Shown here piece after piece: positions 16,415-58,835 of a DNA stretch of 64,000 nucleotides. The stretch is taken from positions 2,384 to 66,383 of the forward strand of contig JAOAJC010000001.1 of NCBI GenBank assembly GCA_026414385.1, written 5' to 3'. The DNA is from Candidatus Pacearchaeota archaeon (GTDB lineage Archaea; Nanobdellota; Nanobdellia; Pacearchaeales; GW2011-AR1). The position numbers and the translations under genes were made by a program. The stretch's first letter is position 1. Every line of letters begins with the position of its first letter. The notes beneath the pieces were generated by a model. It had not been told where the DNA came from. It ran no database searches and was given only the letters and a program-made list of their open reading frames with translations.

Positions 16415-16418
16415 TTTA

Positions 16419-19576: not shown

Positions 19577-21112
19577 ATGGGAAAAGAAGAGAGAATAAAG
19601 GCGATAACGCAATTGTATTATTCAAATCCAAAGGTTCTTGAAGCAATGATGATGTTTTCGATTGATAGGGAAGTTATTCCAAGATATTTTGAAATTTTTG
19701 GGAAAAGGCCTGACAAGATTCAATACCCTTCTGACATTCTTGGAATGGTGAAAAAAGGAGCAACCTCTTTTCATGTATCAGAAGAGTTGTGGAATGATGT
19801 TATGGCTTTAAGTTCTGATTTGAAAACGGAAGAGTTAAATGAGTTGAGAAAAGGATGGGATTTATTAATTGATGTAGATTCGCCTTTTCTTGATTTGTCA
19901 AAAATTGCAACAAAGTTATTATTAAATGCTTTAAAAGAACACGGAATTAAAAATTATGGATTAAAATTTTCTGGAAACAAAGGATTCCATATTATTGTTT
20001 CTAACAAGGCTTTTCCAAAAATTTATGATGGGAAGGAAACGAGAAAAATGTTTCCTGACTGGGCAAGAGCTATCTGTGAATATTTAACAAACTACATAAG
20101 AAAGGATTATTATTTGGAGGCAGGCAAAATATTAACAAACAGCGAAATAGAAAAAAACACTGGATTAAAGGAAGAGCCAAACATTATATGTAAAAAGTGT
20201 GGGAAAAAAGCGCGTGTTGGAGATTTGATTAATTTTAAATGTCCGGTGTGTAACATGGAAATATCAAGAAAAGATGTTAAGATAACAAAGAGAAAATTAA
20301 GATGTTTAAACGAAAAATGTGCAGGTTTTTTTGAAATCATAAATGAAAAAAAATATTATTATTGCGAGTATTGTAAAGAGAGGGATAATGAAAAAATGAA
20401 ATTAAATTCTGAAAAAAATCCTGAAAATTTTGAAGAATTAAGAGGAGTTAATGTTGAGAAGATTGCCAAATTAGATTTAGTGCTTGTTTCTCCAAGACAT
20501 TTATTTAGAATGCCATATTCTTTACATGAAAAGACGGCGCTTGCGAGCATTACAATAAAAGAGGAAGATATTGATAAGTTTATGCCGAGAGATGCAAATC
20601 CGTTAAGTGTGAAAATAATAGAGTTTATGCCAAACAATGAAGAAAATGAAGCAAAATATCTTTTGAGCAATGCAATAGAGTGGAAAAAAACGCAAGAAGA
20701 GACAAATGAAAATAGTTGGAAAAAAATTGATGAAAATGAATTTAGAGAGGTTGATTTTAGAAAAATAAAAGAAGAAATGTTTCCAGAATCTATAAAAAAA
20801 TTATTAAGAGGACTAAAAGACGGGAGAAAACGAGGGTTATTTGTATTAATTACTTTTTTGAGGGCGTTGAATTTTCCTGCAGATTATATAAATAAAAGAA
20901 TAAGAGAATGGAATAAATTGAATGACCCACCATTAAAAGAAGGGTATATTAAAGCACAAATTGATTGGCATCTAAAACAAAAGAAGAAAATATTACCACC
21001 CAATTATTCAAATGATGCATTTTATAAAGACATAGGATTAATTAATGAGATTCCTAAATTAAAAAACCCTCTTTCTGAGATTGCAAGAAAATTAAAGGAG
21101 AATAAAAAATAA
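19577..21112 (+). CDS. priS: DNA primase small (catalytic) subunit PriS with tandem Zn-ribbons and a C-terminal PriCT/PriL-CTD-like helical domain (possible fused primase)
   Basis: AEP catalytic motifs (DLLIDVDSPF, KFSGNKGFHIIV), eight Cys in two CxxC...CxxC ribbons, and a C-terminus GRKRGLFVLITFLRALNFPADYINKRIREWNKLNDPPLKEGYI matching the PriCT-1-type pattern. Confidence 0.75.
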   Translation: MGKEERIKAITQLYYSNPKVLEAMMMFSIDREVIPRYFEIFGKRPDKIQYPSDILGMVKKGATSFHVSEELWNDVMALSSDLKTEELNELRKGWDLLIDVDSPFLDLSKIATKLLLNALKEHGIKNYGLKFSGNKGFHIIVSNKAFPKIYDGKETRKMFPDWARAICEYLTNYIRKDYYLEAGKILTNSEIEKNTGLKEEPNIICKKCGKKARVGDLINFKCPVCNMEISRKDVKITKRKLRCLNEKCAGFFEIINEKKYYYCEYCKERDNEKMKLNSEKNPENFEELRGVNVEKIAKLDLVLVSPRHLFRMPYSLHEKTALASITIKEEDIDKFMPRDANPLSVKIIEFMPNNEENEAKYLLSNAIEWKKTQEETNENSWKKIDENEFREVDFRKIKEEMFPESIKKLLRGLKDGRKRGLFVLITFLRALNFPADYINKRIREWNKLNDPPLKEGYIKAQIDWHLKQKKKILPPNYSNDAFYKDIGLINEIPKLKNPLSEIARKLKENKK

Positions 21113-21184
21113 TAAAAAGATTTGGTTAATTTATTAAATTAAAATGATAGGGAATGTTTTTAAAGATGTAAGCTATATAATTTT

Positions 21185-23011
21185 ATGCGTAAAAGAGGAT
21201 ATGTTATCAGCATAATAATTGTTTTTGCAATATTAATGGCAAACTTTTCAATTGCTGCAACTAATGAGAGTGAGGTAGTTAGTGTTGATAAGGCTTATAA
21301 ATGCCTAAATGAGCAAATTAAAAAAGTTGGTTCAAATATCGGATTCCAAGACGCGATTTTTGCACAGCTTGCAATTGGTTCAGTAAAAGAAACAAGAGAA
21401 AAAATTGAGAGCGAAAAAAGTTCTACTGAAAATTGTTGGCCAAAAGCAGGATGTAAGATAAAAGAAACAGCACAGGTAATGTTGGCTTATGATAGGGTAG
21501 GAAAGAGCACTTCTGAAATAAGAAAATGGCTAATGTCAAAAAATGCGAGCGCAAGTGAGTTAATATGGTTTTTAGAAATTGATATAACAAACAAAGAAGT
21601 TTCAACATGTAGTTTGAAATACGATGGAGTTCAATATAGCATAAAAGTAAATGAGGAACAAAAAATATCTGGGAATGCTGGAAATTGTTTTGTAATTGCG
21701 AATAATGGTTATATGTTAAGAGTTAGCAATAATTGTATTGGAAAAGAGTTTGAAATATCTTGCGACAAAGATTTTGTAACAGCTATGATTTATCAATCAA
21801 GTACTGGAAAAACATTATTTATTCCGCCAAAAGCGACAGGCGCATCTGGTGGCGGGACAACAAAAGAAAAAGCTATTTCGCAATGTTTTAAGACAACAGG
21901 AGCAGGGTGCGATTATGAAGGGACATTATGGGCAGTCCTTGCTCTTGAAAAATTGGGCGAGGAGACAGATGCATTTTTACCATACCTTTATGCATTTGCT
22001 GATTCTAATAAAAGATATTTTCCATCTGCATTTTTGTACATGATTACAAGTGGTGAGGACCAATATGATTCTATAATTTCTTTGCAAAAACAAGGAAAAT
22101 ATTGGGAAATTGCGGGAAGTCCTTATAATAAATATTATGATAGCGCACTGGCGTTAATGGCATTAAGCAAAACGACATCGCAAGAGGCAGAAAACGCAAA
22201 AGCAAATTTATTAACAATACAAACTCCTGATGGGTGTTGGAATAATAACAATATAAGAGATAGCGGATTTATATTATATGCAGGGTTTACGAAGAGTGTT
22301 GGGAGAGAGGGTGGAGGAGAGGTTCCAAAATGCACTGCACCATTTTCATGTACAGGTTTATTTGATTGTGAAAAAGCTGGTGGGACAAGACAATATAATT
22401 ATGATTGTTCATCAGAGGGGGCTACAAAGATATGCTGTTCAATAAGTGTTGTTGAAGAAACTTGTAGTAAAAAGGGAGGGGTGTTATGTGGTGCAAATGA
22501 ACAATGCACTGGTAGAACAGAACCGTCAAAAGATGGAAGTTGTTGTATGAGTGGTTTTTGTGAAGAAATCCCGGTTGTAGAGGACTTGTGTAGTAAAGCG
22601 GGAGGGACGTGTAAATTTGTGTGTGAGGAAGGGGAAGAAAAAAGTAGCGAAACATGCGCAAACACAGAAGAAGTTTGTTGTGTTAAAAAAGGAACAAGCA
22701 TTTGGTTTTGGATTGTATTACTAATAATATTAATTGCACTAACAATAGTCGGGATTGTTTATAGAAATCAGCTAAGATTATTTTGGTTTAAAATTTGGCC
22801 AAAAATAAAAGAGAAATTCATGGGAAAGAAAGTTGAGAGTAAAGCTATGCCTACAACGCAACCAACAACAAAAGCCCCTATTATGACGCCACAAAGAATG
22901 ATGCCAAGGCCAGCTTATCCAATATCGCAAAGAAGTCCGGGAATAGCAAAATCTTCAAAGGAAAAAGAAATAGAAGAAACATTAAGAAAACTAAAAGAGA
23001 TGGGAAAATAA
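21185..23011 (+). CDS. Secreted membrane-anchored surface protein with a toroid-like domain and three Cys-rich modules
   Basis: N-terminal signal/TM. The N-terminal alpha-repeat domain has a QW-like motif (LLTIQTPDGCWNNN). Three tandem Cys-rich modules (C..GG..C......CC) precede a single TM (IWFWIVLLIILIALTIVGIVY) and a basic/Pro-rich cytoplasmic tail. Confidence 0.6.
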   Translation: MRKRGYVISIIIVFAILMANFSIAATNESEVVSVDKAYKCLNEQIKKVGSNIGFQDAIFAQLAIGSVKETREKIESEKSSTENCWPKAGCKIKETAQVMLAYDRVGKSTSEIRKWLMSKNASASELIWFLEIDITNKEVSTCSLKYDGVQYSIKVNEEQKISGNAGNCFVIANNGYMLRVSNNCIGKEFEISCDKDFVTAMIYQSSTGKTLFIPPKATGASGGGTTKEKAISQCFKTTGAGCDYEGTLWAVLALEKLGEETDAFLPYLYAFADSNKRYFPSAFLYMITSGEDQYDSIISLQKQGKYWEIAGSPYNKYYDSALALMALSKTTSQEAENAKANLLTIQTPDGCWNNNNIRDSGFILYAGFTKSVGREGGGEVPKCTAPFSCTGLFDCEKAGGTRQYNYDCSSEGATKICCSISVVEETCSKKGGVLCGANEQCTGRTEPSKDGSCCMSGFCEEIPVVEDLCSKAGGTCKFVCEEGEEKSSETCANTEEVCCVKKGTSIWFWIVLLIILIALTIVGIVYRNQLRLFWFKIWPKIKEKFMGKKVESKAMPTTQPTTKAPIMTPQRMMPRPAYPISQRSPGIAKSSKEKEIEETLRKLKEMGK

Positions 23012-27525: not shown

Positions 27526-27981
27526 ATGAAAAGAATTGCTAAAAGAGGGTTGTCGCCAATTATTGCGACAACATTGTTAATCTCGCTTGTGGTTATATTA
27601 TCAACAGTAATATTCATATGGGCGAGATCTTATTTTGGAGAGCAAATAACAAAGTTTGGTGGGCCTATTGAAGATTCGTGTAAAAATGTTGATTTCAGCG
27701 TAAGTTTTTCTGGGGGGATTTTAAGCATTGCAAATAATGGAAATGTTCCGATTTATGGAGTTAAGATATATGAAGAAGGAACTTTTGGAACAAATGATTT
27801 GGGAGATATAACAACCAAGGTTATTTTTCCTGGAAAAACAGGAGAGATGAGAGCAAATATGATTAATAATAACAATGTTAATAAAATTGTCGTTGTTCCA
27901 ATTTTGTTAGGAGTTATTGAAGAAAAAGAAGAGACAAAAGCATTTGCTTGTGATATTAATTATGGCAAAAACATAGGATAG
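27526..27981 (+). CDS. Archaeal type IV pilin (PF07790-like N-terminus, class III signal peptide)
   Basis: MKRIAKRGLSPIIATTLLISLVVILSTVIFIW matches the [KR]G-x-SP[IV][IV]AT-x-L[LI] archaeal pilin N-terminus. Confidence 0.75.
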   Translation: MKRIAKRGLSPIIATTLLISLVVILSTVIFIWARSYFGEQITKFGGPIEDSCKNVDFSVSFSGGILSIANNGNVPIYGVKIYEEGTFGTNDLGDITTKVIFPGKTGEMRANMINNNNVNKIVVVPILLGVIEEKEETKAFACDINYGKNIG

Positions 27982-27985
27982 AACA

Positions 27986-28525
27986 ATGGACAAAAAAAGA
28001 GGCATGTCGCCTATTGTTGCCACGGTTTTGATTGTTATGTTAACTATTGCAGGTGTTGCAGCAATTGCGAGCTTTGTTATTCCATTTATTAAAAAAAATT
28101 TGGAAAGTGGAAGTGAGTGTAAAGATTATGAAGATTATTTTGTTTTTGACGAGAGTTATAGATATAATTGCTATACTGGTAGCGGAAACAACACGGTTTA
28201 TGGATTTTCTGTAAAAGCGAAAGCTGATACAAAATCTTATCAAAATTTGAAAGGTTTTGTTATTGTGTTAAGAGCAAATGACGGAACATCAAAGAGCTAT
28301 GAAATAGTAAATGGTAGTCAGGCAGGGGAGATAAAAACCTGTGGAAAAACAAAAGTTGAATTGCCATATTCTGGTGGAATAAAAACATATGGATTTCGGA
28401 AAGAAAACATAGTTTCTGCAATAATCCAAACAAAACTTAAATCAGGAAAAATCTGTAAAGAAGCAGATAAAATAGATTTTTATAGGTGCGAATATTCAAT
28501 TGGAGAGACGCTGAAAACATGCTAG
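27986..28525 (+). CDS. Archaeal type IV pilin (PF07790-like N-terminus)
   Basis: MDKKRGMSPIVATVLIVMLTIAGVAAIASFVIPFI is the same class III signal motif. Confidence 0.75.
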   Translation: MDKKRGMSPIVATVLIVMLTIAGVAAIASFVIPFIKKNLESGSECKDYEDYFVFDESYRYNCYTGSGNNTVYGFSVKAKADTKSYQNLKGFVIVLRANDGTSKSYEIVNGSQAGEIKTCGKTKVELPYSGGIKTYGFRKENIVSAIIQTKLKSGKICKEADKIDFYRCEYSIGETLKTC

Positions 28526-29046
28526 TAAAAAAAGGACAGGTTTGGCTTGAAACGGTTTTATACACTTTAATAGGGCTTGTATTAATTGGAATGGTTCTTG
28601 CGTTTGTTATGCCAAAAATTAATGAGGTAAGAGATAGGGCGCTTGTTGAGCAAGCAATATCAACATTTAGTTTGTTGGACGAGAAAATAAATGAAGTTTT
28701 ACAAAAAGGAGCGGGAAATACGAGGAAAATTGATTTTATAATGAAAAAAGGCGAACTCTATTTTAATATGAGTAATGATGAAATTGTTTTTGTGATAAAA
28801 GAATTATCAAAACCATATTCAGAACCTGGAATAGAAATAGAACGAGGAAATATGAAAATATTGAGTTTGCAAAAAGCAAAAACAAATGAAGTGTATTTAA
28901 AATTGAAATATGACTCAAATCTAACATATTCTGGCAGCGATAACTTAAAAAAATTGACTTCTGCATCAACTCCTTATAAGATTTTTATTGAAAATAAAGG
29001 TGTTGTTGGGGAAAGAGAGTGGATAAACATAGAAGAGGTTTCTTAA
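28519..29046 (+). CDS. Pilin-like protein with class III signal and Glu at +5
   Basis: Start refined to the overlapping ATG (ATGCTAG) giving MLVKKGQVWLETVLYTLIGLVLIGMVLAFV. KKG then QVWLE places a Glu five residues after the predicted cleavage site. Confidence 0.55.
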   Translation: MLVKKGQVWLETVLYTLIGLVLIGMVLAFVMPKINEVRDRALVEQAISTFSLLDEKINEVLQKGAGNTRKIDFIMKKGELYFNMSNDEIVFVIKELSKPYSEPGIEIERGNMKILSLQKAKTNEVYLKLKYDSNLTYSGSDNLKKLTSASTPYKIFIENKGVVGEREWINIEEVS

Positions 29047-29101
29047 TAAAAAAAGATAGGTTTAAATAAATCTTTTCTCTGATTAGTAGTAATAAAAAAA
29101 G

Positions 29102-30625
29102 ATGGTTCAAAAGATAAATTTAAATCCTGCAATTCCAAAGCTTCAAAAATTTGAAGATAAAAAAAAGATAGATGTTAGATATGCCCTTATTTCCCCATAT
29201 GCATTCGCGCATATCTATTGGAGAGAGGACATAGGCGAGGTAGTTTATGAGATTGAAGAACCGGTATTAAATGAAAAGGAAAGAGCTTCTCTTGAAAAAT
29301 TAGAAAATGCAATGCTTGAACTGATAAACATAAATGTGGCTGTTGAAAAAACATTGGAAGCGACAACAGAATATATTGATAAAACAGCAAAATTACTTAT
29401 TGCAGAACTTAATTTAAATATTAGTGATGAAACTTACGAAAAATTGTTTTATTATTTGTTTAGAAACTTTATAGGGCTAAATGAGATTGAACCATTATTG
29501 AGAGATTATTATATTGAAGATATTGAGTGTAACGGGGTGAATACCCCGGTTTATGTCGTGCATAGGGTTTTTAGAAATTTAAGAACAAATTTGACTTTTA
29601 AAGACATGGATAAAGCAGCGAGCTTTGTAGAGAAGCTTGCGCAGAGATGCGGAAGATATATTTCTTATGCACAACCATTGCTCGATGGAACATTGCCTGA
29701 TGGTTCAAGAGTAAATGCAACATATACAAAAGAGATAACTTCAAAAGGGCCAACATTTACAATAAGAAAATTTACGAAAATACCTTGGACTCCAACGCAA
29801 TTAATAGCATTTAATACGATGAGTGCTGAAATGGCTGCGTATTTTTGGATTCTTATCCAATATAAATCGAGTATTGTTGTTGCGGGAGGAACTGGTTCGG
29901 GAAAAACTACTTTCTTAAATGCGATGGCTTTTTTTATTCCGCCAGAGGCAAGAGTAGTCAGCATAGAAGATACGAGAGAAATAAACTTACCAAGAGAAAA
30001 TTGGTTACCTTCTGTTGCGAGGCCATCAATTGGGGTTGGAAAGGTTGGCGAAATTGATTTGTTTGAATTATTAAAAAGTTCATTTAGACAAAATCCAGAT
30101 TATATTATTGTGGGAGAAGTGAGGGGGAAAGAAGCATTTGTGCTTTTTCAAGGAATGGCTTCTGGACATGCTTCTTTGAGTACAATGCACGCAGATTCTG
30201 TTGAAACAATGGTTAGAAGATTAGAAACTCCGCCAATAGAACTCTCTCCAACATTAGTAAATACACTTGATTGTGTTGCTGTTGCTGCGAAAGCATTGAT
30301 AGGGCAGCAAGAGTCAAGAAAAATAAGAGAAGTTTCTGAAATTGTTGAAGTTAATAAAGATGGCAGTGTTATAATAAATACCCCTTTAATTTGGGATCCG
30401 AAAACAGACAAATTTCTTTTTAGAAAAGAGAGCAAAGTATTTGAAAAAATAGCAGGAAGATTTGGAATGACTATTGATAATTTGTACAAAGAATTCACGA
30501 TAAGAACAAAATTACTTTACGAATTAGCAAGAAGAAAAGTGTTTGGATTTGAAGAGATACAAAGAATAATAAACGATTATTATAAAAATCCTGCAGAAGT
30601 GTTAAGTAGATATGGAATAGGTTAA
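29102..30625 (+). CDS. Type IV pilus/secretion assembly ATPase (FlaI/TadA/PilB family)
   Basis: Walker A VAGGTGSGKTTFLNAM, Asp box, Walker B DYIIVGEVRGKEA, and His box GHASLSTMHADS. Confidence 0.85.
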   Translation: MVQKINLNPAIPKLQKFEDKKKIDVRYALISPYAFAHIYWREDIGEVVYEIEEPVLNEKERASLEKLENAMLELININVAVEKTLEATTEYIDKTAKLLIAELNLNISDETYEKLFYYLFRNFIGLNEIEPLLRDYYIEDIECNGVNTPVYVVHRVFRNLRTNLTFKDMDKAASFVEKLAQRCGRYISYAQPLLDGTLPDGSRVNATYTKEITSKGPTFTIRKFTKIPWTPTQLIAFNTMSAEMAAYFWILIQYKSSIVVAGGTGSGKTTFLNAMAFFIPPEARVVSIEDTREINLPRENWLPSVARPSIGVGKVGEIDLFELLKSSFRQNPDYIIVGEVRGKEAFVLFQGMASGHASLSTMHADSVETMVRRLETPPIELSPTLVNTLDCVAVAAKALIGQQESRKIREVSEIVEVNKDGSVIINTPLIWDPKTDKFLFRKESKVFEKIAGRFGMTIDNLYKEFTIRTKLLYELARRKVFGFEEIQRIINDYYKNPAEVLSRYGIG

Positions 30626-30687
30626 AATGTGAAAATTTCTTAAGCCATATTGATTAAATTTAATAAGATTGAAAAATAAATATAATT

Positions 30688-30849
30688 ATGAAAAAAGAGG
30701 ACATTAATTTAATTGCCAGAGTATTGACGGACATGAAAGATTCTTTAACTGAAATTGAAAATGCGTTGAAAAATAAAGACATTGGAAAATTAAATGAAGC
30801 AAAATCAAAGATTTTGAGGTTGCAAATAGAGATAGATAAAAGAATATGA
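30688..30849 (+). CDS. Small coiled-coil ORF (53 aa) between the ATPase and the membrane platform gene
   Basis: MKKEDINLIARVLTDMKDSLTEIENALKNKDIGKLNEAKSKILRLQIEIDKRI, with a stop codon overlapping the next ATG (ATGA). Below the ORF-track size cutoff. Confidence 0.3.
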   Translation: MKKEDINLIARVLTDMKDSLTEIENALKNKDIGKLNEAKSKILRLQIEIDKRI

Positions 30850-32138
30850 TAACCCAAATAGAACAACTAAAAAAGAACATAGATGGTGAAATAAAGATAT
30901 TAGGAGAGATTTCTAATTTATTTGTTAGGTTTGAAAATAGCACTGGAGAAGAAAGAAGAATAATTCTTAGTACAATTGATTCACTATCTAAAAATATGAA
31001 GATGATAAACCGAGCGATTCCAAAAATTCTTGAGAGTATTGTCATTGAGGAAAGAAAAGAAAAGAAAGAAGACAAACTTGAGAGAATAGAAGAAGGAATT
31101 GCGGAGGGGGTTGTTTTGAAACTAGAGGACAAGGAAAAATTCTTAACAGAATTAAACATAAATGAAGAGTTTATTAAAAAATTAAAGAAAAAGAAAAGTG
31201 AGGGTGAAGAAAAATATGAAGAATTCAAAAAAGCAAGAGGTTATTTGAAACTTGCAAATAGGTTTTTTTTAGAAAGTTCTATTAGTATGGTAAAGAAAGG
31301 ATATTTCAGTGATTTATACAATGATTTAAAAAAATCAAATTTAAACATTCTTCTTGAAGGATATGTTGCGATGATGCTTTTAACAAGCGTTATTGCGTTT
31401 TGTTTGGGGGTTTTTTTGTTTGTTTTTTTTATGTTATTTGATATTAGTTTTTCGATGCCTTTAATAAGTGCCTATAAAGGCGGGTTTTTTCCGAGATTTT
31501 CAAAAATAATATGGCTACCTTTAATTATGCCATTGATAACTTTTATAGCACTCTATATTTACCCATCAACAGAGGCAAAATCAATTGAAAAAAATATAAA
31601 CGAAGAATTACCATTTGCTGTGGTGCATATGAGTTCTATATCAGGTTCTGGGATAGCGCCTGTGGAAATTTTCAAAATTATTGGGAATAGCAAAGATTAC
31701 CCATATCTAAAAAGAGAGTTAAGAAAAGTGTTAAACCAAATCAACATATATGGATATGATTTAGTTAGCGCATTAAATAATGTCTCAAAAAGTACACCAA
31801 GTGCAAAATTAAGTGCCTTGATGGCTGGATTATCAACTACAATAAATACTGGTGGAAATTTGAGCGATTTTTTTCAGAAAAGAGCTGATTCATTGCTATT
31901 AGAGTACAAGTTAGATAAGGAAAAATTCATAAAAGTTGCAGAGACATTTATGGACATTTACATAAGCGTCGTAATTGCTGCACCAATGATAATTATGTTG
32001 TTGTTAATAATGATATCAATATCGGGATTACAAACAGGATTCTCGCCATATCAATTAACATTCATCACAATAGCAGGAGTAGCTTTTGTTAATATTATAT
32101 TTTTAGCATTTTTACAAACAAAGAAAGGAATTGCATAA
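30846..32138 (+). CDS. Pilus assembly membrane protein, FlaJ/TadC-like, N-terminal half (T2SS-F domain)
   Basis: Cytoplasmic coiled-coil N-terminus, then TM helices and a T2SSF-like domain (ELPFAVVHMSSISGSGIAPVEIFKIIG...LSALMAGLSTTINTGGNLSDFF). Confidence 0.7.
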   Translation: MITQIEQLKKNIDGEIKILGEISNLFVRFENSTGEERRIILSTIDSLSKNMKMINRAIPKILESIVIEERKEKKEDKLERIEEGIAEGVVLKLEDKEKFLTELNINEEFIKKLKKKKSEGEEKYEEFKKARGYLKLANRFFLESSISMVKKGYFSDLYNDLKKSNLNILLEGYVAMMLLTSVIAFCLGVFLFVFFMLFDISFSMPLISAYKGGFFPRFSKIIWLPLIMPLITFIALYIYPSTEAKSIEKNINEELPFAVVHMSSISGSGIAPVEIFKIIGNSKDYPYLKRELRKVLNQINIYGYDLVSALNNVSKSTPSAKLSALMAGLSTTINTGGNLSDFFQKRADSLLLEYKLDKEKFIKVAETFMDIYISVVIAAPMIIMLLLIMISISGLQTGFSPYQLTFITIAGVAFVNIIFLAFLQTKKGIA

Positions 32139-32986
32139 TGAAAATAAATAGAACAAAATTGCTTGGAATTATAGCAGGAATAATTGTGATAGTTGTTGAT
32201 TTAATATTTTTCTTTGGTGAAAAAGCATTTATGTTTATCATCGGCATAGCAATTGTTGTAGCATTAACACCTTTTATAATTGAAATAGTAAGGGAGGGAA
32301 AAAGGGCAGAGGATATCGAAGAGAAATTTCTTGAATTTTCAAGAAATCTTGCAGAAAGCGTAATGACTGGAACTCCGATAAGTAAAAGTATTGTGAATAT
32401 ATCAAAAAAGAATTATGGTGCTTTGACTCCCCACGTGCAGAAATTATCAAATCAAATTCAATTAGGAATACCATTAAGTAAGGCATTGCAAATATTTGCA
32501 AATGATATTGATAATGTTGTTATAACTAGAGCAATAGCACTAATAAGTGAGGCTGAAAAAGCTGGTGGAGAAATTGATTATATTCTCGATTCTGTTGCTA
32601 AATCAATTGCAGAAACAGAAAAACTAAAAAAAGAAAGAAAATCTGCAATATTTAATCTTGTAATGCAAGGATATATTATATTCTTTATATTTATAGGAAT
32701 AATGCTCGTAATGGAGTTTAAAATATTGCCACTTGCGACAGGAATTGGTGGGGGGGGCATTTCTGGAGTAGAAATTGGTGGAATGATACCTGTTGGAGGA
32801 CAAACAATGAATCCTGAAGAGATATCAAATTTATTCTTATACTTGCTTTTAACACAAGGATTTTTTGCAGGATTGACTATTGGAAAATTGAGCGAGGGTT
32901 CTATAAAAGCTGGGATTAAACACTCGTTTATACTTGTTATTGCAGCATTTTTAATATCAACGGGAGTAAGAGCTTTGTTTGTTTAA
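32138..32986 (+). CDS. Pilus assembly membrane protein, FlaJ/TadC-like, C-terminal half (second T2SS-F domain)
   Basis: TAATG overlap with the upstream half. TM, then T2SSF-like IEEKFLEFSRNLAESVMTGTPISKSI...LISEAEKAGGEIDYILDSVA, then TMs. Confidence 0.65.
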   Translation: MKINRTKLLGIIAGIIVIVVDLIFFFGEKAFMFIIGIAIVVALTPFIIEIVREGKRAEDIEEKFLEFSRNLAESVMTGTPISKSIVNISKKNYGALTPHVQKLSNQIQLGIPLSKALQIFANDIDNVVITRAIALISEAEKAGGEIDYILDSVAKSIAETEKLKKERKSAIFNLVMQGYIIFFIFIGIMLVMEFKILPLATGIGGGGISGVEIGGMIPVGGQTMNPEEISNLFLYLLLTQGFFAGLTIGKLSEGSIKAGIKHSFILVIAAFLISTGVRALFV

Positions 32987-33046
32987 AAACATAATTGAAC
33001 TTTGTTATAAAGCAAATTTAATAAACTAAAAAAAATTAAGAAAGAT

Positions 33047-33745
33047 ATGAAAAAGAGAGGGGCGAGCAATATAGAGTTTATACTTGCATTTGTATTGTTT
33101 GTCGGATTTGTAGCAACGATTTTTTATTTTTTTAATCCTATTAGAAATGTTAATTATATGGAATCATCTTTAAACTATGTTATTGGAGCGATAGAGAAAA
33201 ATGTAACTAGTGAGATTGATGAAGTTGGGATATTAATTAAAGGTTCAAGTTCGGGGGGCAATATTGCAAAGGTTAAGATAAAAGACATTTCAAATGATAA
33301 AAAAGTTGATGCAAGAGATTATTATGGATTTCGATTTGATGCAAAAAGAAATGGTGAAGAAGTTTATATTGATTTAAAAAATAGAGGAACAAATAACAAT
33401 TTTATAATATTTAGGTTTAATGAGGAATTTAATGAGGAAACAATTTCTAGTGGCCAAGAAAGAGAATATACAATATCAACAAAAGATTCAAGAAAAATTG
33501 TTTCTGAAAAAAAAATAAAGCAATTAAGCGAGAGATACGCAAATAATTATTTAAAATTGAAAGAAGAACTAAAAATTCCTGCGAACATTGATTTTTCATT
33601 TTCGTTAGAATTGCAAGACAGAAAAATAGAAGTAACAAAAGATATTCCTGCAAGAGCAGAAGTATTTGCAAAGGGAAAATTAATTGAAGTATTAAAAGAA
33701 AATGAGGTGACTGAAACCGGATATTTAACAATAAGAATATGGTAA
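33047..33745 (+). CDS. Pilin-like/minor pilin protein (class III signal, Glu+5)
   Basis: MKKRGASNIEFILAFVLFVGFVATIFYFF. If cleaved after RG, Glu is at +5. Confidence 0.5.
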   Translation: MKKRGASNIEFILAFVLFVGFVATIFYFFNPIRNVNYMESSLNYVIGAIEKNVTSEIDEVGILIKGSSSGGNIAKVKIKDISNDKKVDARDYYGFRFDAKRNGEEVYIDLKNRGTNNNFIIFRFNEEFNEETISSGQEREYTISTKDSRKIVSEKKIKQLSERYANNYLKLKEELKIPANIDFSFSLELQDRKIEVTKDIPARAEVFAKGKLIEVLKENEVTETGYLTIRIW

Positions 33746-34167
33746 ATAAAAAAGGAATAGTTAGAATAATTGAAGCCAGTGTTGCAATATTAATTATATT
33801 GTCTGTAGTATTAGTGGTTTCTGAAAGAAAAAAATTGCAAATTGAGAGCGATTTAAGTGAGAGAATAACTCCATTGTTAGAAGAAATAGCAAAAAATGGG
33901 AGTATGAGAGAAGCGATAATAAGAGATAATGAAACGAATAATGATGCTGAAAATCTTGTTATGGATTTTTTGAAACAAAGAATAAAAGAGACATTTATAG
34001 GTTATAATGTAACAATATGTAACTATACTCTTGTTTGTGGATTAAGAACATATCCAACAGAAGCAAAAGGCAACATTTATTCTGGAGAGAGAGTGATTAG
34101 CACAACATTAGAAAATAGACAGTTCAATCCAAAAAAAATAAAGATTTTCTTATGGATTAAAAGATAA
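33739..34167 (+). CDS. Pilin-like protein (class III signal)
   Basis: MVNKKGIVRIIEASVAILIILSVVLVV. Confidence 0.45.
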   Translation: MVNKKGIVRIIEASVAILIILSVVLVVSERKKLQIESDLSERITPLLEEIAKNGSMREAIIRDNETNNDAENLVMDFLKQRIKETFIGYNVTICNYTLVCGLRTYPTEAKGNIYSGERVISTTLENRQFNPKKIKIFLWIKR

Positions 34168-34299
34168 AACTGGTTTGCAATAGATTAAATTAAAAAATTT
34201 TGCATAAAATAGAATAACTTAAATCTTATGTTTGGGCGCGCATTTGTATAGATTAAGGAGTACAGGTAATTTTATAAACTCCATTTCTTTAAAAAAGAT

Positions 34300-35907
34300 A
34301 TGAAAAGAGAGGTTTTTTTTATCGGATTTGTAATATTTATAATAACGTTTGCAAGCGCTATTTGCAATGATGAGAATCAGGTTATTTTAAGATTATACAG
34401 AGAGAATAACTCTCATGCGGCAATATGGTCAAATACAACTTATAGCGAAAAAGTGTGTTTTAATGATATTTTTGGACTAAATTATTCAGGAACAAATCCA
34501 CACGATTGTAATAGTGATAATAGTAATGTTGTTTTAAAGCTAAATCAAGAGTTTAATGCGCATGCTGCACTGCCAACTCTTCCAGATAGTGTTGTTGGAT
34601 TCCCAATAAAAGTTTGTTATAAGGGAGTAAAAAAATGTGAATTGTTTGATAATGATAATTGCAGAGCAAATCAGAAAGCAATTCTTTATTTTAATAGCGT
34701 GATTAACTCTCATCTTTCAAAAAATTATGGAGGGGATTTTACAAAAACATTGTGTTGTTATAGATATGATGCGATAATTCATCCGGAATGGTGTTTTGCA
34801 AATAACATTAGCAGTTGTGATAGATATAATAGTCAAACTAATTGCACTCAAGATTTATGTAATGCCTCATTAGTAGATCCAAATTGTCCTCTCGGAGCAA
34901 CTTGTAATTGTGCTTGGGAAAATAATCAATGCAAATTAAAAGTAATAACCACTCCTCCAGCCCCGCCATTTTGTTCTACTATAAATTCATGTGGAGATTA
35001 TAAAGAACAAAGTAAATGTTCTGAAGATATGTGTAACGTTTCTGGGACAGGATATAAGTGTGAGTGGAATATCGCAGATGGAAAGTGTGAGAAAGTTCAA
35101 ATCCCTGGATGGTGTTCTGTAATTAGTAGTTGTAGTAATTATACAACGCAAGCAAATTGTAGCGCGAATCCTTGTTTGGAGGGAAAAGCATGTTATTGGA
35201 ATAATAGTGTTTGTAAAGATTATAAAGCAGATGATAAATGTAGAATAAATAATATAACGAAATGTGCAAATTATGTGGACAAAGATCCGTGTAATGATGA
35301 TGCTTGTAATGTATCTATAATTGGTTGTTCTCCTAATCAGTTATGTTGGTGTGCTTGGGAAAATAATAAGTGTGAGAAAAGAGAAAAAGATAGAGAAGAA
35401 AAAAGAGATTTTTGCGATTATATAGATTCTTGTAGTGATTATGATACTTCAAATAAGTGCGAAAATGATAATTGTGGAATTGCAGATTATGATGAGAATT
35501 GTCCTATTGGTAGAGATTGTTCGTGTAAGTGGATAAGTAATGTTGGTTGTGGAGTATCATTTGAGAGTGGGGGAGGGAGTGGTGGCAGGATGCCTCCTGG
35601 TTCAGGTGGGTGGGGCAATCCAGGTTGCAAATATAATTGTACAATTAATACAAAACAAGGAGAGTGTAAAGAAGGATTTATGGATGTGATAGTAAATGCA
35701 GAAACTAGGATAATACAAGGATGTACAGGAGCAACAGGAAGTCCACTAGATTGTCAAACTAAAACAATAAAGGGAGTTCCGTGTGCATTAGCAGAAACAG
35801 AATTGCCTTTTTTTGAATTTTGGCAAATCCTCATTTCTATTGTGGGGATTGTATTTGTCTATTTGTTTTTATTAAAAAATTGGGAAAAAATAAAAAAGCA
35901 TATATAA
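34300..35907 (+). CDS. Secreted Cys-rich repeat protein (five ~40-aa C-x-x-Y/x-x-x-x-C-x-x-D-x-C-N-x-S...C-x-W-x-N-x-x-C modules) with C-terminal TM anchor
   Basis: Signal peptide. Repeats CDRYNSQTNCTQDLCNAS...CNCAWENNQCKLK, CGDYKEQSKCSEDMCNVS...CEWNIADGKCEKV, CSNYTTQANCSANPC...CYWNNSVCKDY, CANYVDKDPCNDDACNVS...CWCAWENNKCEKR, CSDYDTSNKCENDNCG...CSCKWISNVGCG. Many N-x-S/T sequons. Gly-rich linker and TM at the end. Confidence 0.6.
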   Translation: MKREVFFIGFVIFIITFASAICNDENQVILRLYRENNSHAAIWSNTTYSEKVCFNDIFGLNYSGTNPHDCNSDNSNVVLKLNQEFNAHAALPTLPDSVVGFPIKVCYKGVKKCELFDNDNCRANQKAILYFNSVINSHLSKNYGGDFTKTLCCYRYDAIIHPEWCFANNISSCDRYNSQTNCTQDLCNASLVDPNCPLGATCNCAWENNQCKLKVITTPPAPPFCSTINSCGDYKEQSKCSEDMCNVSGTGYKCEWNIADGKCEKVQIPGWCSVISSCSNYTTQANCSANPCLEGKACYWNNSVCKDYKADDKCRINNITKCANYVDKDPCNDDACNVSIIGCSPNQLCWCAWENNKCEKREKDREEKRDFCDYIDSCSDYDTSNKCENDNCGIADYDENCPIGRDCSCKWISNVGCGVSFESGGGSGGRMPPGSGGWGNPGCKYNCTINTKQGECKEGFMDVIVNAETRIIQGCTGATGSPLDCQTKTIKGVPCALAETELPFFEFWQILISIVGIVFVYLFLLKNWEKIKKHI

Positions 35908-35949
35908 AGGAATCAGTAATTTTTTAAACATAATTTTATTAATAAAATA

Positions 35950-38649
35950 ATGAATAAAAAAAGAGTGAGCGTTGTTTTTTGTTTTATATTCTTATTAGTT
36001 ATTATTAGTTTTGTTTCTGCATCTTTTAGTTTTAAAAATGAAAATTTGCAAAGAACATATGTTGGTGGAGAGATGATTAAGGGATTTATAAACATAAGTT
36101 TCTCAAATGAGAATGCACATAGTTTATTAACTAGTAATTTTAATGGAACAATAACATTAATTGAATTATTGAAAAAAAATAACTTTATCGAAAATAATGA
36201 TTACATATGTTCTAGAAAAAAATGCGAAATTGATTATAAAGCAGACGAAGAAATAAACAGTTTAAATTTAAATGATGATGATAGTAAAATAATTGGCTTT
36301 AAATTAACTGGAAATAATGTAGAAATAAGTTCGTTAAAATTATCTTTGGCAACAAATGCAGATGCTTCGTGCGAGAGAGAAATTTTGATAGATGTTCTTG
36401 ATAGAAACGAGAGTTTTATACAGAGCACAAAAAAAACAAAGGATATTTGTGAAGAAGAGTATTTTGGTTGTTTTGACGAAAACGAAGATACAAGTTATGT
36501 AATTATATCAGAATCAGGATATTGTGAAAAGATTGAATTGCCGCCAGCACCTGCATATATGATAGGAGCAAAAGTAAAAAATGGAACAGCGACAGCAAAA
36601 TTAACAATGAAATTATATGATGGTTCATGGAATGAGTTGGGTGAATGTGAATTACCAAAAAACTCACAAAATATTGAAAAACTGACATGCCAAGTTAATT
36701 ATTCAAATAAAGAAAAGAAAGAATTTATGATTTGCATTTCTTCTTCATCAGAAGACGCAGAATATCAGATAAGGAGTGAAGAATCTAGAGAAACATGCGG
36801 AACGGATAATATGGGTAGCTCTTATAATATTGATTTTGAGATATTTGCAAAAAAAGTTAAATTTGCTCCGATAGGGATATTATCAATAAATGAGACGACT
36901 TTTTCAGAACAAAATGATGGAAATAACTTAAATGATTATATAGATAGTTATATAGAAGAAAAATATGAAAGAAATTGTTCAAATGGGTGCATAATTCCGT
37001 TTAGGATTTATGGGAATAGTCAGACAATTACAAAAGAAAGTGCAACATTAAAATATAGAGAAGGTAGTGGTAGAGTGTTGCGTACGACAGGTGCTATTTA
37101 TTCTATTGAAAAAGAAGATGCAAAAATAACTACAAAAAGAGCATTAAACATAAATATTGAAAAGGCAGGTTTTTTCATACCTCTCTTATCAACAGCAAAA
37201 CAATTATTAATTTATTTGGACAATAAGATGATATTGCCAAAAGCTATTCCGATAAATGTTACAAAAGGATTTGATTTTGATATTTCACCAAAAGAAGTTA
37301 GCATTGGTATAGTAACTTATTTTAATATAATAACAACTGAGAATATAACTTCGTCCAAGTGGAATTTTGGAGATGGAACAATTGAAACATTTGATGGAAA
37401 AGGAGCCGTACATAAATATGTTGGATTACCAATTGGAACAAATGAGTATAGTGTTGAAGTAATCGTAACAAGAAAAGATGGAGTAATATCAAAAAAAATA
37501 TTTAAAATAGGGATTGAGCCATTGTCAGAAAGCGCAAAAACCTTGCTTAATATATCAAATTCAAAAATAACAAAATTAAACTCAAAAATAAACTCTTATC
37601 CTGAGTGGATTGGAGATTTAATAAAAACAAAATTGAATTTTGATAATATGAATTCTGTTATTACGAAAGGAAAAATTGCTATTTTGAATGCTTCAACTAA
37701 TGATGATTATATGGCAATAATAAATCAAATGTTAGGATTAGAAATTCCCGATGAAATAATTTCAAAAGAGATTGGAAAGGATATTAATCCTGTTGTTGGA
37801 TTTGAAAAAATAGAAACGTCTGCCATTGAACAGATATCAAATAAAAAGGTAAGCTCAGATAAAAAAGCAGAACTAAAAGAAGCGATTATTAAATGGATGG
37901 CGAGAAATGCAAACATGAAATTAGAGTATGAAAAGATATTTCAGATAGATGAAAATGGGGAAAAAATTTTACTTAGTAAATTGGTGATAGATGTTAATCC
38001 AAAAGAAAAAGCTTATTTGATAATAAATTATCCACTCAACAGCATAAAATTCAATGGAAATTATTCTGAAAGTGCAATTGGTTCTTTTAGTTATATCCCT
38101 ATAAAAGAACCAAAAATAATAGAATTTGCAATTATGGATAATGTTAATGTTGGGGATTTAGGTATTTATCTATCGCCAACAATTGATAAAGTTTATGTAC
38201 AAGCAGAAGTTGTTAAGGAAGAATTTAATTGGAGTAGATTTATAACGTGGATGATTGTTTTGTTCGTAATTGCTTTTATAATATACATTGTAATGCAAGA
38301 ATGGTACAAAAGATATTACGAAAAATCATTATTTAAAAATAAAGATGACTTGTATAATTTAATTAATTTTATTTATAATGCAAAAAAAGCAGGAATGAAA
38401 GATGAAGAATTAAGAAATAAGTTGAGTGATGCAAAATGGAAAGGCGAACAAATAACATATGCTCTAAGAAAAGCAGAAGGAAAAAGAACTGGGATGTGGG
38501 AAATACCAATATTTAAATATTGGGAACAAATGGAAATAAAAGCAGAGATTGCAAAAAGAGTGGGTGAGCAAAAAACAAGCGCGCAACAACAGTCAAATTC
38601 AAAAATGCATAATATAAAAACTGGGACACAACAAAGTTTATTAAAATAA
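35950..38649 (+). CDS. Large secreted surface protein with a PKD domain and C-terminal TM anchor
   Basis: Signal peptide. PKD motif WNFGDGTIETFDGKGAVHKYVGLPIGTNEYSVEVIVTRKDG. TM FITWMIVLFVIAFIIYIVMQEWY. 899 aa. Confidence 0.6.
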   Translation: MNKKRVSVVFCFIFLLVIISFVSASFSFKNENLQRTYVGGEMIKGFINISFSNENAHSLLTSNFNGTITLIELLKKNNFIENNDYICSRKKCEIDYKADEEINSLNLNDDDSKIIGFKLTGNNVEISSLKLSLATNADASCEREILIDVLDRNESFIQSTKKTKDICEEEYFGCFDENEDTSYVIISESGYCEKIELPPAPAYMIGAKVKNGTATAKLTMKLYDGSWNELGECELPKNSQNIEKLTCQVNYSNKEKKEFMICISSSSEDAEYQIRSEESRETCGTDNMGSSYNIDFEIFAKKVKFAPIGILSINETTFSEQNDGNNLNDYIDSYIEEKYERNCSNGCIIPFRIYGNSQTITKESATLKYREGSGRVLRTTGAIYSIEKEDAKITTKRALNINIEKAGFFIPLLSTAKQLLIYLDNKMILPKAIPINVTKGFDFDISPKEVSIGIVTYFNIITTENITSSKWNFGDGTIETFDGKGAVHKYVGLPIGTNEYSVEVIVTRKDGVISKKIFKIGIEPLSESAKTLLNISNSKITKLNSKINSYPEWIGDLIKTKLNFDNMNSVITKGKIAILNASTNDDYMAIINQMLGLEIPDEIISKEIGKDINPVVGFEKIETSAIEQISNKKVSSDKKAELKEAIIKWMARNANMKLEYEKIFQIDENGEKILLSKLVIDVNPKEKAYLIINYPLNSIKFNGNYSESAIGSFSYIPIKEPKIIEFAIMDNVNVGDLGIYLSPTIDKVYVQAEVVKEEFNWSRFITWMIVLFVIAFIIYIVMQEWYKRYYEKSLFKNKDDLYNLINFIYNAKKAGMKDEELRNKLSDAKWKGEQITYALRKAEGKRTGMWEIPIFKYWEQMEIKAEIAKRVGEQKTSAQQQSNSKMHNIKTGTQQSLLK

Positions 38650-38668: not shown

Positions 38669-39307
38669 ATGTTAAAGATATTAAAAAGTTTTGCGAAGAG
38701 AATTCTGAAAAGCATTTTTAAAAAAAGAGATGAAATAAAAATTGGATTTTATGGGCCACCAAATGCTGGTAAGACATCTATTGCAAACAAAATATGTAAA
38801 GATTGGACTGGAGAGGAAATAGGGAAAGTTAGTAAAATACCTCATGAGACAAGAAAAGTGCAATTCAAAGAGAAAGTTGAAATTGAACACAAAGGGAAAA
38901 AACTAACATTTAAAATAGCAGATACTCCAGGAATTGCCACAAGAATTGATTATGAAGATTTTTTAAAACATGGGTTAAATAAAGGGATTGCAAAAAAAAG
39001 AGCAAAAGAAGCTACGCAGGGAGTTATAGAATCAATAAAATGGCTTGATGATATGGATGCTGTTATTGCTGTTTTAGACGCAAGTGAGAATCCATATTCG
39101 CAAGTAAATGTTACAATATTAGGAAACATTGCTGCGAGAAACATTCCTGTTCTTGTTGTAGCAAATAAGATTGATTTAAAAAAAGCAGACATTAATCAAA
39201 TAAAAGCAGCTTTTCCAGATTATGAAGTTATTGGAATAAGCGCAAAAGAGGGAACAAATTTTGACGAATTTTATGAATCGTTATTTAAATTAGCAAAGCA
39301 GATTTAA
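38669..39307 (+). CDS. Small GTP-binding protein (P-loop GTPase)
   Basis: G1 GPPNAGKTS, G3 DTPG, G4 ANKID, G5 SAK. Confidence 0.75.
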   Translation: MLKILKSFAKRILKSIFKKRDEIKIGFYGPPNAGKTSIANKICKDWTGEEIGKVSKIPHETRKVQFKEKVEIEHKGKKLTFKIADTPGIATRIDYEDFLKHGLNKGIAKKRAKEATQGVIESIKWLDDMDAVIAVLDASENPYSQVNVTILGNIAARNIPVLVVANKIDLKKADINQIKAAFPDYEVIGISAKEGTNFDEFYESLFKLAKQI

Positions 39308-39313
39308 GATAAA

Positions 39314-39706
39314 ATGGTAAAAGAAAAAAAAATAAAAGGATTGAGTTTGCAACTAATTCCATTTTCAGAGCTAAGCGGGCTTGGAATATCAGAAAGAGTA
39401 AAAAAAGTGTTGTCTTTGGTATTAGATAATAAAATAGCCATAATCCAGGGGAGATTAAGGGCTGAAGAAGAAGCAAGATTAATTGAGGATACAATGGTTT
39501 TAGTGGATAGAGTAAAAAATTTTAAAGGTATAGAGTTGGCTGTGATTGAACCTGACTTAAAAGATGCTGGAATTTTTATGAAAGCTAAGCAGGCAATTGC
39601 AAATTCTCTAACTGGCAATAACAACGCCCTAACAGTCGTCGGTCCAGCTTCAATAATAAAAGAAATAAAAAGAAATCCAAAGAAGATTGAACTGATGCTA
39701 AAATAA
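39314..39706 (+). CDS. Archaeal conserved protein, DUF2073-like
   Basis: 130 aa. It is the conserved downstream partner of this GTPase in archaeal genomes (recalled from memory, not searched). Confidence 0.4.
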   Translation: MVKEKKIKGLSLQLIPFSELSGLGISERVKKVLSLVLDNKIAIIQGRLRAEEEARLIEDTMVLVDRVKNFKGIELAVIEPDLKDAGIFMKAKQAIANSLTGNNNALTVVGPASIIKEIKRNPKKIELMLK

Positions 39707-39727
39707 ATAAAACTTTATTAATCCATA

Positions 39728-40123
39728 TTGCTGATTTTTTGTATGCCATATAGGTGCGTACATTGTTCGGTAGTTTATGAAGATAGTGCAGAAGAACTAA
39801 TGCGTGGTTGCTCTAATTGTAAAAGCAAGTTCTTTTTTTATATAAAACCAGAGAAATTAAAGGAAATTGCAGAAAATGAGAGAGAAGAGAATTTTACAAA
39901 AGAAGAAAAAGAAAAAATGGAAAAAGATATAAGAGAGATTGTTGGGATAACTAATGAAGAAAAGCCAGTATTTTTAGATTTTGAAAGTATAAAAGTAATA
40001 AGACATGGAAAATATCTTATTGACTTACCAAAATTATTTGATTTAAAAAAACCAAGAGTTTATAGTTTAGAAGATGGAAAGTATATTATTGATTTAAACG
40101 TTCTAATGAAACCATCAAAATAA
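39728..40123 (+). CDS. Zn-ribbon-containing protein (DUF2072-like)
   Basis: CVHCSVVYED...CSNCKSKFFF ribbon at the N-terminus followed by an acidic coiled region. Third member of the conserved triad. Confidence 0.4.
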   Translation: MLIFCMPYRCVHCSVVYEDSAEELMRGCSNCKSKFFFYIKPEKLKEIAENEREENFTKEEKEKMEKDIREIVGITNEEKPVFLDFESIKVIRHGKYLIDLPKLFDLKKPRVYSLEDGKYIIDLNVLMKPSK

Positions 40124-50574: not shown

Positions 50575-50845
50575 GGTGTAGGCAGGGAGTTTGCTCAAAA
50601 AACCCATTGCAGAACCCTCTTGCCTTTCTCAGTTTTGCAACCCTGAAAGCATCTTGTTTCCTGATTAGGGCTGCTCCGATCAAGGCCTGACCCGATTCAC
50701 AGGAGCAAGATCGAACAGGACAAAACATCAACGTCCGGCAAAAGACTGCAAAGAGTCTTTCTCACTCGCTCCTTTAAGCTTGCCATGAAGCCCGCTTGCA
50801 TGACGGCGCAGGGCTAGCGCGCCAGCTTGCCTACATCATAAAGAA
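50575..50845 (-). ncRNA. ffs: Probable signal recognition particle RNA (7S/SRP RNA)
   Basis: A ~270-nt GC-rich island in an AT-rich genome with no ORF. The minus-strand reading contains GGUCAGG-CC-uugauc-GG-AGCAGCC (forward coordinates 50668..50693). This is the conserved SRP RNA helix-8 pattern (GGUCAGG...AGCAGCC flanking a short stem-loop). Confidence 0.5.
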
Positions 50846-58679: not shown

Positions 58680-58835
58680 TTTTACCTCCTTTTTAATTTA
58701 GTTTGTGATTTTATTAAAAATTATAGGAATTTGGAGTTTATAAGCTTTTCTTTTTTTATTTTTGGTTAAATTTAATGGCCGGGTGCGTTCGGCGCTTCGC
58801 GCCTCACATATTATTGAGGTTGTATTTTTTTAATT

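Follow-up and report, generated by a model that had tools for sequence, protein, structure and literature searches.

A probable Pacearchaeota orthologue of the archaeal OapABC/ArvABC/DipABC module, a three-protein GTPase switch

The present analysis deals with three adjacent genes of Candidatus Pacearchaeota archaeon, encoding a small GTPase, a DUF2073 protein and a Zn-ribbon protein, on a stretch of DNA of 64,000 nucleotides (assembly GCA_026414385.1, contig JAOAJC010000001.1, positions 2,384 to 66,383), hereafter the window, within which all coordinates are counted. The closest described systems are the products of HVO_3014, HVO_3013 and HVO_3012 in Haloferax volcanii, which were named oapABC and are located beside orc1 and oriC1 (Wolters et al., FEMS Microbiol Lett 2019, via PMC10927574); according to Mills et al. 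(PMC10927574), neither a replication function nor any other could be assigned in that mutant study. The genes were subsequently renamed arvABC when ArvA was reported to be enriched in Haloferax extracellular vesicles, which carry RNA (Mills et al., PNAS 2024; PMC10927574). The vesicle yield was 2.9-fold lower upon arvA deletion, 3.5-fold higher upon its overexpression and 3.1-fold lower upon arvB deletion, while arvC deletion raised it 1.65-fold (PMC10927574). In a bioRxiv preprint of May 2026, the same genes were renamed once more, as dipABC, and described as a Min-like oscillator placing the FtsZ ring (He et al., 2026; PMC13228585). All three Dip proteins are reported to oscillate from pole to pole and their deletions to give minicells and misplaced FtsZ and SepF rings; in addition, DipA from Archaeoglobus fulgidus binds liposomes only with GTP and via an N-terminal helix, hydrolysis of the GTP is stimulated by the DipB dimer, which strips DipA from the membrane, DipC behaves as a cargo inhibiting FtsZ1, and DipB binds DNA in vitro (PMC13228585).

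In the window, whose GC content is about 30%, three open reading frames (ORFs) follow one another on the forward strand, namely arvA (oapA/dipA; 38669..39307), encoding a 212-amino-acid (aa) single-domain GTPase predicted by orthology to bind membranes (PF01926 MMR_HSR1, E 4.8e-16), arvB (oapB/dipB; 39314..39706), encoding a 130-aa protein (PF09846, formerly DUF2073 and now OapB, E 2.1e-14), and arvC (oapC/dipC; 39743..40123), encoding a 126-aa protein (PF09845, formerly DUF2072 and now OapC, E about 1e-18). The co-directional and tightly spaced triad recognised in the preliminary description of this DNA is thus borne out, with gaps of only 6 nt between arvA and arvB and 36 nt between arvB and arvC. 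The start of arvC is most likely the ATG at 39743 rather than the upstream TTG at 39728, because the first six residues of the ORF counted from the TTG lie outside the Pfam match, and the entry at NCBI with an identical sequence has a length of 126 aa. Proteins 100% identical to all three products are indeed present at NCBI, from Candidatus Pacearchaeota archaeon, under the annotations "Era-like GTP-binding protein", "DUF2073 domain-containing protein" and "Zn-ribbon domain-containing protein". Searches of protein databases returned hundreds to thousands of homologues for each protein, the matches in word-indexed searches being close Pacearchaeota relatives only.

The Dip system was defined in MacSyFinder by PF01926, PF09846 and PF09845, with at least two of them present and at most one intervening gene (He et al., 2026); here, all three families score above their gathering cut-offs and are carried by adjacent genes. 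The protein lengths compare well with published values, since ArvB has the same 130 aa as in H. volcanii, ArvC lies within the 131.5 +/- 19.6 aa given for non-haloarchaeal DipC, and the 212 aa of ArvA can be set beside the 642 nt of HVO_3014 and fall in the range of about 200-250 aa expected for this GTPase family. Besides, Pacearchaeales is named 163 times in the genome table given as a supplement by Mills et al., which is taken to be the ArvA census. Altogether, the likeness to OapABC, ArvABC and DipABC extends to the Pfam families, the gene order, the Walker motifs with their spacing, the N-terminal amphipathic helix, the length of the B protein and the build of the C protein, i.e. a Zn ribbon followed by a conserved C-terminal domain. 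With reasonable though far from complete confidence, the locus can then be considered as the Pacearchaeota orthologue of this module, a three-protein membrane-cycling GTPase switch. The module is already known and is not dark matter; the view that it had no assigned function has been overtaken by the three successive publications and by the renaming of both domains of unknown function in Pfam. Some differences should be stressed, as the H. volcanii ArvC is 330 aa long with a long disordered region whereas the window ArvC has 126 aa and a short linker, and as the H. volcanii genes adjoin orc1 and are reported as one operon whereas the window locus is not by orc1 and its arvC has a putative promoter of its own. 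The module of the window comes from a DPANN archaeon with a small genome, while the proteins studied experimentally are those of H. volcanii and A. fulgidus.

The conservation of gene order was considered over one genome per species, using the ArvB motif GLTIIGPA, which gave 282 confirmed loci, of which 80 were kept and their neighbours searched with purpose-built hidden Markov models. These loci belong mostly to Woesearchaeota/Nanoarchaeota, with an ArvB about 45% identical to that of the window; as the required motif biases them to Woesearchaeota-type DPANN, synteny in Euryarchaeota is taken from the literature. ArvA is encoded directly upstream of ArvB on the same strand in all 80 loci, and ArvC within three genes downstream of ArvB in 73 (the next gene in 66, one or two genes further in 7). 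ArvC was undetected in the other 7, three of which have less than 2 kb of sequence downstream of ArvB and one of which (L036) had an ArvC match in a first pass. In the three distinct Pacearchaeota relatives compared (L081, L084, L087), the A-B-C order is kept throughout, arvB and arvC being interrupted in L084. On a larger scale, 1,666 ArvA homologues were reported from 14 archaeal phyla, including 7 DPANN phyla, with ArvB directly downstream of ArvA in 93% of these genomes and ArvC within 2 genes in 78% (PMC10927574). With hundreds to thousands of homologues per protein and a gene order found in 80/80 independent loci, the association is far beyond chance. The neighbourhood comparison called for by the preliminary description thus finds the three genes syntenic in other archaea and upholds the arrangement shared by Euryarchaeota and DPANN that it had put forward. 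When all neighbours of the 80 loci were clustered, no other family occurred in more than 17 of them, the commonest being the RNA ligase RtcB (17/80) and an XPD-like helicase (16/80); in 8/80, a gene for a truncated MCM-like AAA protein of 390 aa is met two genes upstream. These nucleic-acid-related neighbours are variable but recurrent in Woesearchaeota-type loci (e.g. L075, L028 and L001).

Regarding the GTPase, the motifs G1 GPPNAGKT (residues 29-36), G3 DTPG (85-88), G4 NKID (166-169) and G5 SAK (191-193) are all present, and ArvA also matches TIGR00231 small_GTP, its NCBIfam equivalog scores being all far under the cut-offs. In H. volcanii DipA, Walker A GPPNAGKT is found at 31-38 and Walker B DTPG at 87-90 (PMC13228585), in other words, both motifs are identical in the window ArvA and separated by an equal 56-residue spacing. 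ArvA identity amounts to 75-80% across Pacearchaeota and about 60-65% to Woesearchaeota ArvA; no match was obtained by tblastn against plasmids. A reading as a defence system was rejected, the PADLOC matches being only weak ones, at the P-loop level, to LeoA/LeoBC. The first 18 residues (38669..38722, +), MLKILKSFAKRILKSIFK, form a predicted amphipathic helix followed by a basic KKR patch, a putative membrane-targeting sequence with a hydrophobic moment (muH) of 0.67, the highest of the protein. This helix is kept in 190 homologues, with a mean maximum muH of 0.78 in the 121 Pacearchaeota-type and 0.63 in the 69 Woesearchaeota-type sequences vs. 0.25 for the protein body.

The P-loop GPPNAGKT together with Asn40, i.e. 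Lys35+5 (38753..38788, +), holds both Asn residues of the K+-binding signature of TrmE-Era-EngA-type GTPases. N32 and N40 are invariant among 40 ArvA sequences, and G1 GPPN[AGSV]GK[TS] and G3 DTPG[IL] occur in 194/194, the window protein having I89. As Ile or Leu comes after DTPG in every one of these 194 sequences, ArvA is devoid of the catalytic Gln. Cation-dependent GTPases with a hydrophobic amino acid substituted for this Gln (HAS-GTPases) are recognised by GxxNxGK[ST], a second Asn at Lys+5 and the hydrophobic residue itself (PMC3466195); at the sequence level, all three are present in ArvA as N32, N40 and I89. Since the catalytic Gln is absent and both K+-binding Asn residues are present, GTP hydrolysis is probably activated by K+, by dimerisation or by a partner, as in MnmE, EngA or FeoB, and not by an arginine finger of the Arf-GAP type. 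The word "potassium" does not appear in the main text of the Dip preprint (PMC13228585), and no mention of the K+/HAS signature was met in the parts of Mills et al. and of this preprint considered here. The best sequence relatives of ArvA are these K+-activated HAS-GTPases of the TrmE-Era-EngA-YihA-Septin superfamily, such as MnmE, EngA/Der, Era, FeoB and YqeH, to which it would be allied by its P-loop, its Asn at Lys+5 and its hydrophobic residue in place of Gln; it differs from them in consisting of one G domain, to which no KH, TrmE or membrane-transporter domain is attached, and in being targeted by an N-terminal helix and associated with ArvB and ArvC partners.

It is at this point that the vesiculation model of Mills et al. 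(2024) has to be weighed, in which ArvA is an Arf-like GTPase budding RNA-carrying extracellular vesicles from the cell membrane, ArvB its guanine nucleotide exchange factor (GEF) and the Zn-finger protein ArvC its GTPase-activating protein (GAP), and which in DPANN could serve exchange with a host. The enrichment of ArvA in H. volcanii vesicles and the vesicle yields of the arvA, arvB and arvC mutants speak for it (PMC10927574), as does the N-terminal amphipathic helix, since in Arf1 and Sar1 as well a small GTPase bears such a helix, whose exposure is coupled to GTP and membrane association. However, the G3 motif of ArvA is DTPG-Ile and not WDxGGQ, and the catalytic Gln of Arf is lacking. 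MMR_HSR1 covers ArvA over its full length, while PF00025 Arf covers residues 126-174 only (E 5.4e-6). When the ArvA profile was compared with PDB chains, Der (1e-10), TrmE (3e-8) and Era (9e-6) led the matches, and one Arf-labelled match, 8oul, "Arf GTPase", is limited to residues 7-49, i.e. the N-terminal helix and P-loop (E 6.7e-6). Judging from its sequence, ArvA belongs with the TRAFAC GTPases of the Era/EngA/MnmE type, not with Arf.

The putative regulators do not fit the Arf scheme any better. The N-terminus of ArvC is an invariant four-Cys zinc ribbon (C5-x2-C8 ... C23-x2-C26), with the spacing CxxC-x14-CxxC followed by K-S-K-F-F and no Arg, whereas ArfGAP has CxxC-x16-CxxC-x4-R; the ArfGAP family PF01412 gives no match in ArvC even at E <= 10, and the fold search with the ArvC model returned none. 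ArvC is not an ArfGAP, and ArvB is not a Sec7 or longin/roadblock GEF. Furthermore, ArvB and ArvC were reported not to be found in vesicles (PMC10927574), and the dip/arv mutants and overexpressers shed minicells and debris that could confound vesicle counts (PMC13228585). As an account of the module in its own right, Arf-like vesiculation then appears rather unlikely, though it is compatible with the membrane-cycling switch and does not compete with it exclusively; most simply, the effect on vesicle output would be a second read-out of the same membrane and division switch.

Downstream of its zinc ribbon, ArvC shows an acidic helical linker at about residues 36-70, then a conserved C-terminal domain in which GKY[LI]IDL occurs twice. 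The acidic helix announced in the preliminary description is therefore present, although not as a tail, being a linker before this domain, and the same region is the segment expanded to a long disordered stretch in haloarchaea. In a profile search of solved structures, the only likeness was a weak one, between the zinc ribbon and the RNA polymerase subunit Rpo12 (E 0.024).

For ArvB, the predicted model is an alternating beta-alpha fold, weakly SepF-like and as much Pop6-, Alba- or IF3-C-like. No sequence similarity to SepF, the FtsZ membrane anchor, was detected even with a profile search, no N-terminal membrane-targeting helix is present, and a profile search of solved structures gave no relatives by sequence; the fold likeness to Alba and Pop6 is equally weak. 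DipB has a loop reported to bind membrane (PMC13228585), of which a basic and partly hydrophobic stretch at about residues 80-100 of ArvB may be the counterpart by analogy. A polybasic C-terminal tail (e.g. ...KKRRKK) ends 25 of the 73 full-length representatives of ArvB clusters; by a crude count of basic residues over the last 12 positions, 57 of the 80 Woesearchaeota-type loci were flagged, a measure that also picks up the conserved C-terminal helix. In Pacearchaeota, including the window copy, a basic N-terminal extension (MVKEKKIKG...) is found in place of this tail. Such an extra basic end may be an added membrane- or DNA-binding element. One of the distant ArvB cluster representatives comes from a Micrarchaeota archaeon.

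As to transcription, a TATA-box-like TTTATTAA is located at 38637..38644 (+), 32 nt before the arvA ATG and within the 3' end of the upstream surface-protein gene, as a putative arvA-arvB promoter, and a second copy at 39714..39721 (+), 29 nt before the arvC ATG, as a putative separate arvC promoter. The same motif occurs at the same distances before arvA and arvC in the three other Pacearchaeota loci, and none comparable precedes arvB. Of 70 genes in the window, 8 are preceded by TTTAWWAA with its first letter at -38 to -26, vs. 1.2 expected, which fits TATA boxes of leaderless mRNAs. Given the 6-nt gap and the lack of a promoter motif ahead of arvB, this gene is probably co-transcribed and translationally coupled with arvA. 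In Pacearchaeota, arvA-arvB and arvC are then probably separate leaderless transcription units, in agreement with arvC being a separable gene in other genomes.

The way such a switch would work can be drawn from steps shown for the H. volcanii and A. fulgidus proteins and carried over here by orthology. In its GTP-bound form, ArvA/DipA would insert its N-terminal amphipathic helix into the membrane and recruit the Zn-ribbon protein ArvC/DipC, a cargo inhibiting FtsZ1 polymerisation; the SepF-like dimer ArvB/DipB would stimulate GTP hydrolysis and strip ArvA from the membrane, so that the proteins would bind and leave the membrane in cycles, which would exclude the FtsZ ring from the wrong places. 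In its proposed working logic, this arrangement parallels MinD/MinE/MinC by analogy, with A comparable to MinD as a nucleotide-dependent membrane binder acting through an amphipathic helix, B to MinE as a small dimeric activator and releaser, and C to MinC as a cargo that inhibits FtsZ. The two systems are, however, related neither in sequence nor in fold, and the analogy is one of function without homology, ArvA being a TRAFAC GTPase with an N-terminal helix and MinD a ParA/MinD-type (SIMIBI-class) ATPase with a C-terminal one. FtsZ-based division systems are present in 93.2% of the tested DPANN genomes. Positioning of the divisome would most likely be the cellular role, with vesicle formation as a compatible or rival read-out.

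Several points weigh against extending this reading to Pacearchaeota. Cells of this lineage are thought to be very small, so that a pole-to-pole reaction-diffusion oscillator may not fit them, and no ftsZ, sepF or tubulin signature was found within the 64-kb window. The functional experiments all bear on H. volcanii or A. fulgidus proteins and none on DPANN homologues, and both functional papers leave other lineages still to test (PMC10927574, PMC13228585). The divisome-positioning study is a single un-reviewed preprint, in whose 766-genome set Dip is reported among DPANN only in Nanohaloarchaeota (PMC13228585). Besides, the opposite signs of the arvB and arvC deletions on vesicle yield are not obviously predicted by a Min-like model, the structure prediction of ArvC is poor, and the TATA-like motif was not found at the corresponding positions in Woesearchaeota-type loci.

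The next gene downstream encodes the CCA-adding enzyme, a position from which the preliminary description had drawn a link to RNA or translation. Under such a reading, ArvA would be an RNA- or ribosome-linked GTPase of the Era/EngA type, with two small nucleic-acid-binding partners and a functional link to this enzyme. It could find some comfort in the ribosome-assembly and tRNA-modification GTPases Der, TrmE and Era being the nearest relatives of ArvA, in the Pop6/Alba/IF3-C likeness of the ArvB model matching that to SepF, in the weak resemblance of the ArvC ribbon to Rpo12, in the RtcB neighbour of 17/80 loci, as well as in the DNA binding of DipB in vitro (PMC13228585) and the RNA of Haloferax vesicles (PMC10927574). 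The adjacency itself does not hold, though. The three Pacearchaeota relatives are collinear with the window over a whole block, i.e. pilus genes, a surface protein of about 890-940 aa, ArvA, ArvB, ArvC, CCA and TrmB, and onward through a presenilin-like protease, aCPSF1, the proteasome, Rad50 and Mre11, except that a 233-aa opposite-strand gene is inserted between arvB and arvC in L084 and two genes separate ArvC from CCA in L087. None of the 80 Woesearchaeota-type loci has a gene for the CCA enzyme, for aCPSF1 or for the presenilin-like protease within 8 kb, and TrmB is found in 2. Because the succession of triad and CCA is confined to collinear relatives among Pacearchaeota, with 0/80 loci elsewhere, the adjacency is lineage collinearity and not linkage; the CCA gene is moreover preceded by a promoter-like element of its own. 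In addition, ArvA carries no KH or other RNA-binding domain but a predicted membrane-targeting helix, its equivalog scores are far too low, and what is reported of the Haloferax mutants concerns division, vesicles and motility but no defect in translation (PMC10927574, PMC13228585). The suggested RNA link is consequently highly improbable.

The original Oap reading, according to which the three proteins act at or near oriC/orc1, takes its ground from the H. volcanii operon adjoining orc1 and oriC1, from which the Pfam names derive, and could be backed by the DNA binding of DipB (PMC13228585) and by the truncated MCM-like gene upstream of 8/80 DPANN loci. Against it, no orc1/cdc6-like gene was seen among the ORF translations read by eye over 16-64 kb of the window, of which selected ORFs were scanned in Pfam, and no ORF of the size expected for orc1/cdc6 lies in 1-16 kb; likewise, no Orc1-like family stood among the 20 most recurrent neighbour families of the 80 loci, inspected by eye with five representatives run in Pfam. 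As neither the window translations nor the recurrent neighbours include an Orc1-like gene, origin adjacency is not part of the conserved unit in DPANN, and the Oap name applies by homology. Added to the inability of the 2019 mutant study to assign a replication function, as related by Mills et al. (PMC10927574), this leaves an origin function with hardly any likelihood.

Regarding the origin of the window genome itself, the ORF-poor region at 56.3-59.2 kb was tried as a candidate and rejected, since it contains small membrane-protein ORFs and one short repeat cluster only, and lies 19 kb from the triad. The cumulative GC skew reaches its minimum near 16-18 kb (region about 16000-21200), a signal confounded by gene-strand bias; there, a minus-strand ribosomal-protein operon meets the genes for PCNA (18661-19407, -) and a primase-like protein (19577-21112, +; PF01896). 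The 514-bp intergenic region at 58680-59193, between divergent genes, harbours four copies of AAAATTCCAT/ATGGAATTTT within 80 bp (58847-58925), and three of the four exact repeat copies of the window sit in this region. It also includes, within an AT-rich stretch, a GC-rich and partly self-complementary segment (58778-58807), a putative hairpin; a regulatory site, a small RNA or an origin-like element could be considered, with no Rfam match at the gathering threshold. Beyond it, two convergent genes separated by 153 bp, at 59194-59859 (+) and 60013-60642 (-), encode proteins of 221 and 209 aa with, by eye, a coiled-coil N-terminal half and a helix-turn-helix-like C-terminal half, for which Pfam gives none or a sub-threshold DnaD_N match. 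A signal recognition particle RNA is located at 50578-50834 (-), assigned to the Rfam family "Bacteria_large_SRP" with 71.4 bits, one lower-scoring overlap of the same clan having been removed by clan competition.

Directly upstream of arvA and on the same strand lies a type IV pilus-like locus, which spans 27526-38649 (+) with its surface-protein genes. Its pilin-like genes are accompanied by those for a FlaI/VirB11-type ATPase (29102-30625) and for two membrane proteins of the FlaJ/T2SSF-like kind (30846-32986); next come a 535-aa Cys-rich repeat protein that has no match in Pfam (34300-35907) and a surface protein of 899 aa, matched weakly by PKD (35950-38649). The order from pilus to arvA is kept in the Pacearchaeota relatives, and homologues of the pilus locus are found upstream, on the same strand, in 12 of the 80 Woesearchaeota-type loci.

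A further and more speculative possibility, to which we give little weight, is that in ultra-small DPANN cells the module is no pole-to-pole oscillator, but a membrane-remodelling switch activated by K+ and dimerisation and transcriptionally split into arvAB and arvC, which would serve budding, vesicle release or the membrane dynamics of host contact. If this were true, the position conserved in Pacearchaeota, directly downstream of the type IV pilus genes and of those for giant surface proteins, would belong to a cell-surface or contact programme, and HAS, K+-dependent GTPase chemistry would set the module apart from the Arf-GAP/GEF model as well as from the MinD analogy.

Coming back to the membrane-cycling switch, the window brings no new system, but a module kept under strong conservation in reduced Pacearchaeota genomes, with both the CCA adjacency and the origin adjacency outside the conserved unit. 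The additions made here are small, namely the HAS signature of ArvA, the probable separate arvAB and arvC units and the weak SepF/Alba likeness of the ArvB model. Few archaea-specific gene clusters are as widely conserved as this module, for which two claims are current, one as the archaeal Min counterpart and one as a pre-eukaryotic vesiculating GTPase. In this context, the K+-dependent, glutamine-less signature bears on how ArvB/DipB would activate hydrolysis, and the residual interest of the locus concerns the part played by the module where DPANN cells are very small, as well as the K+/HAS chemistry of its GTPase.

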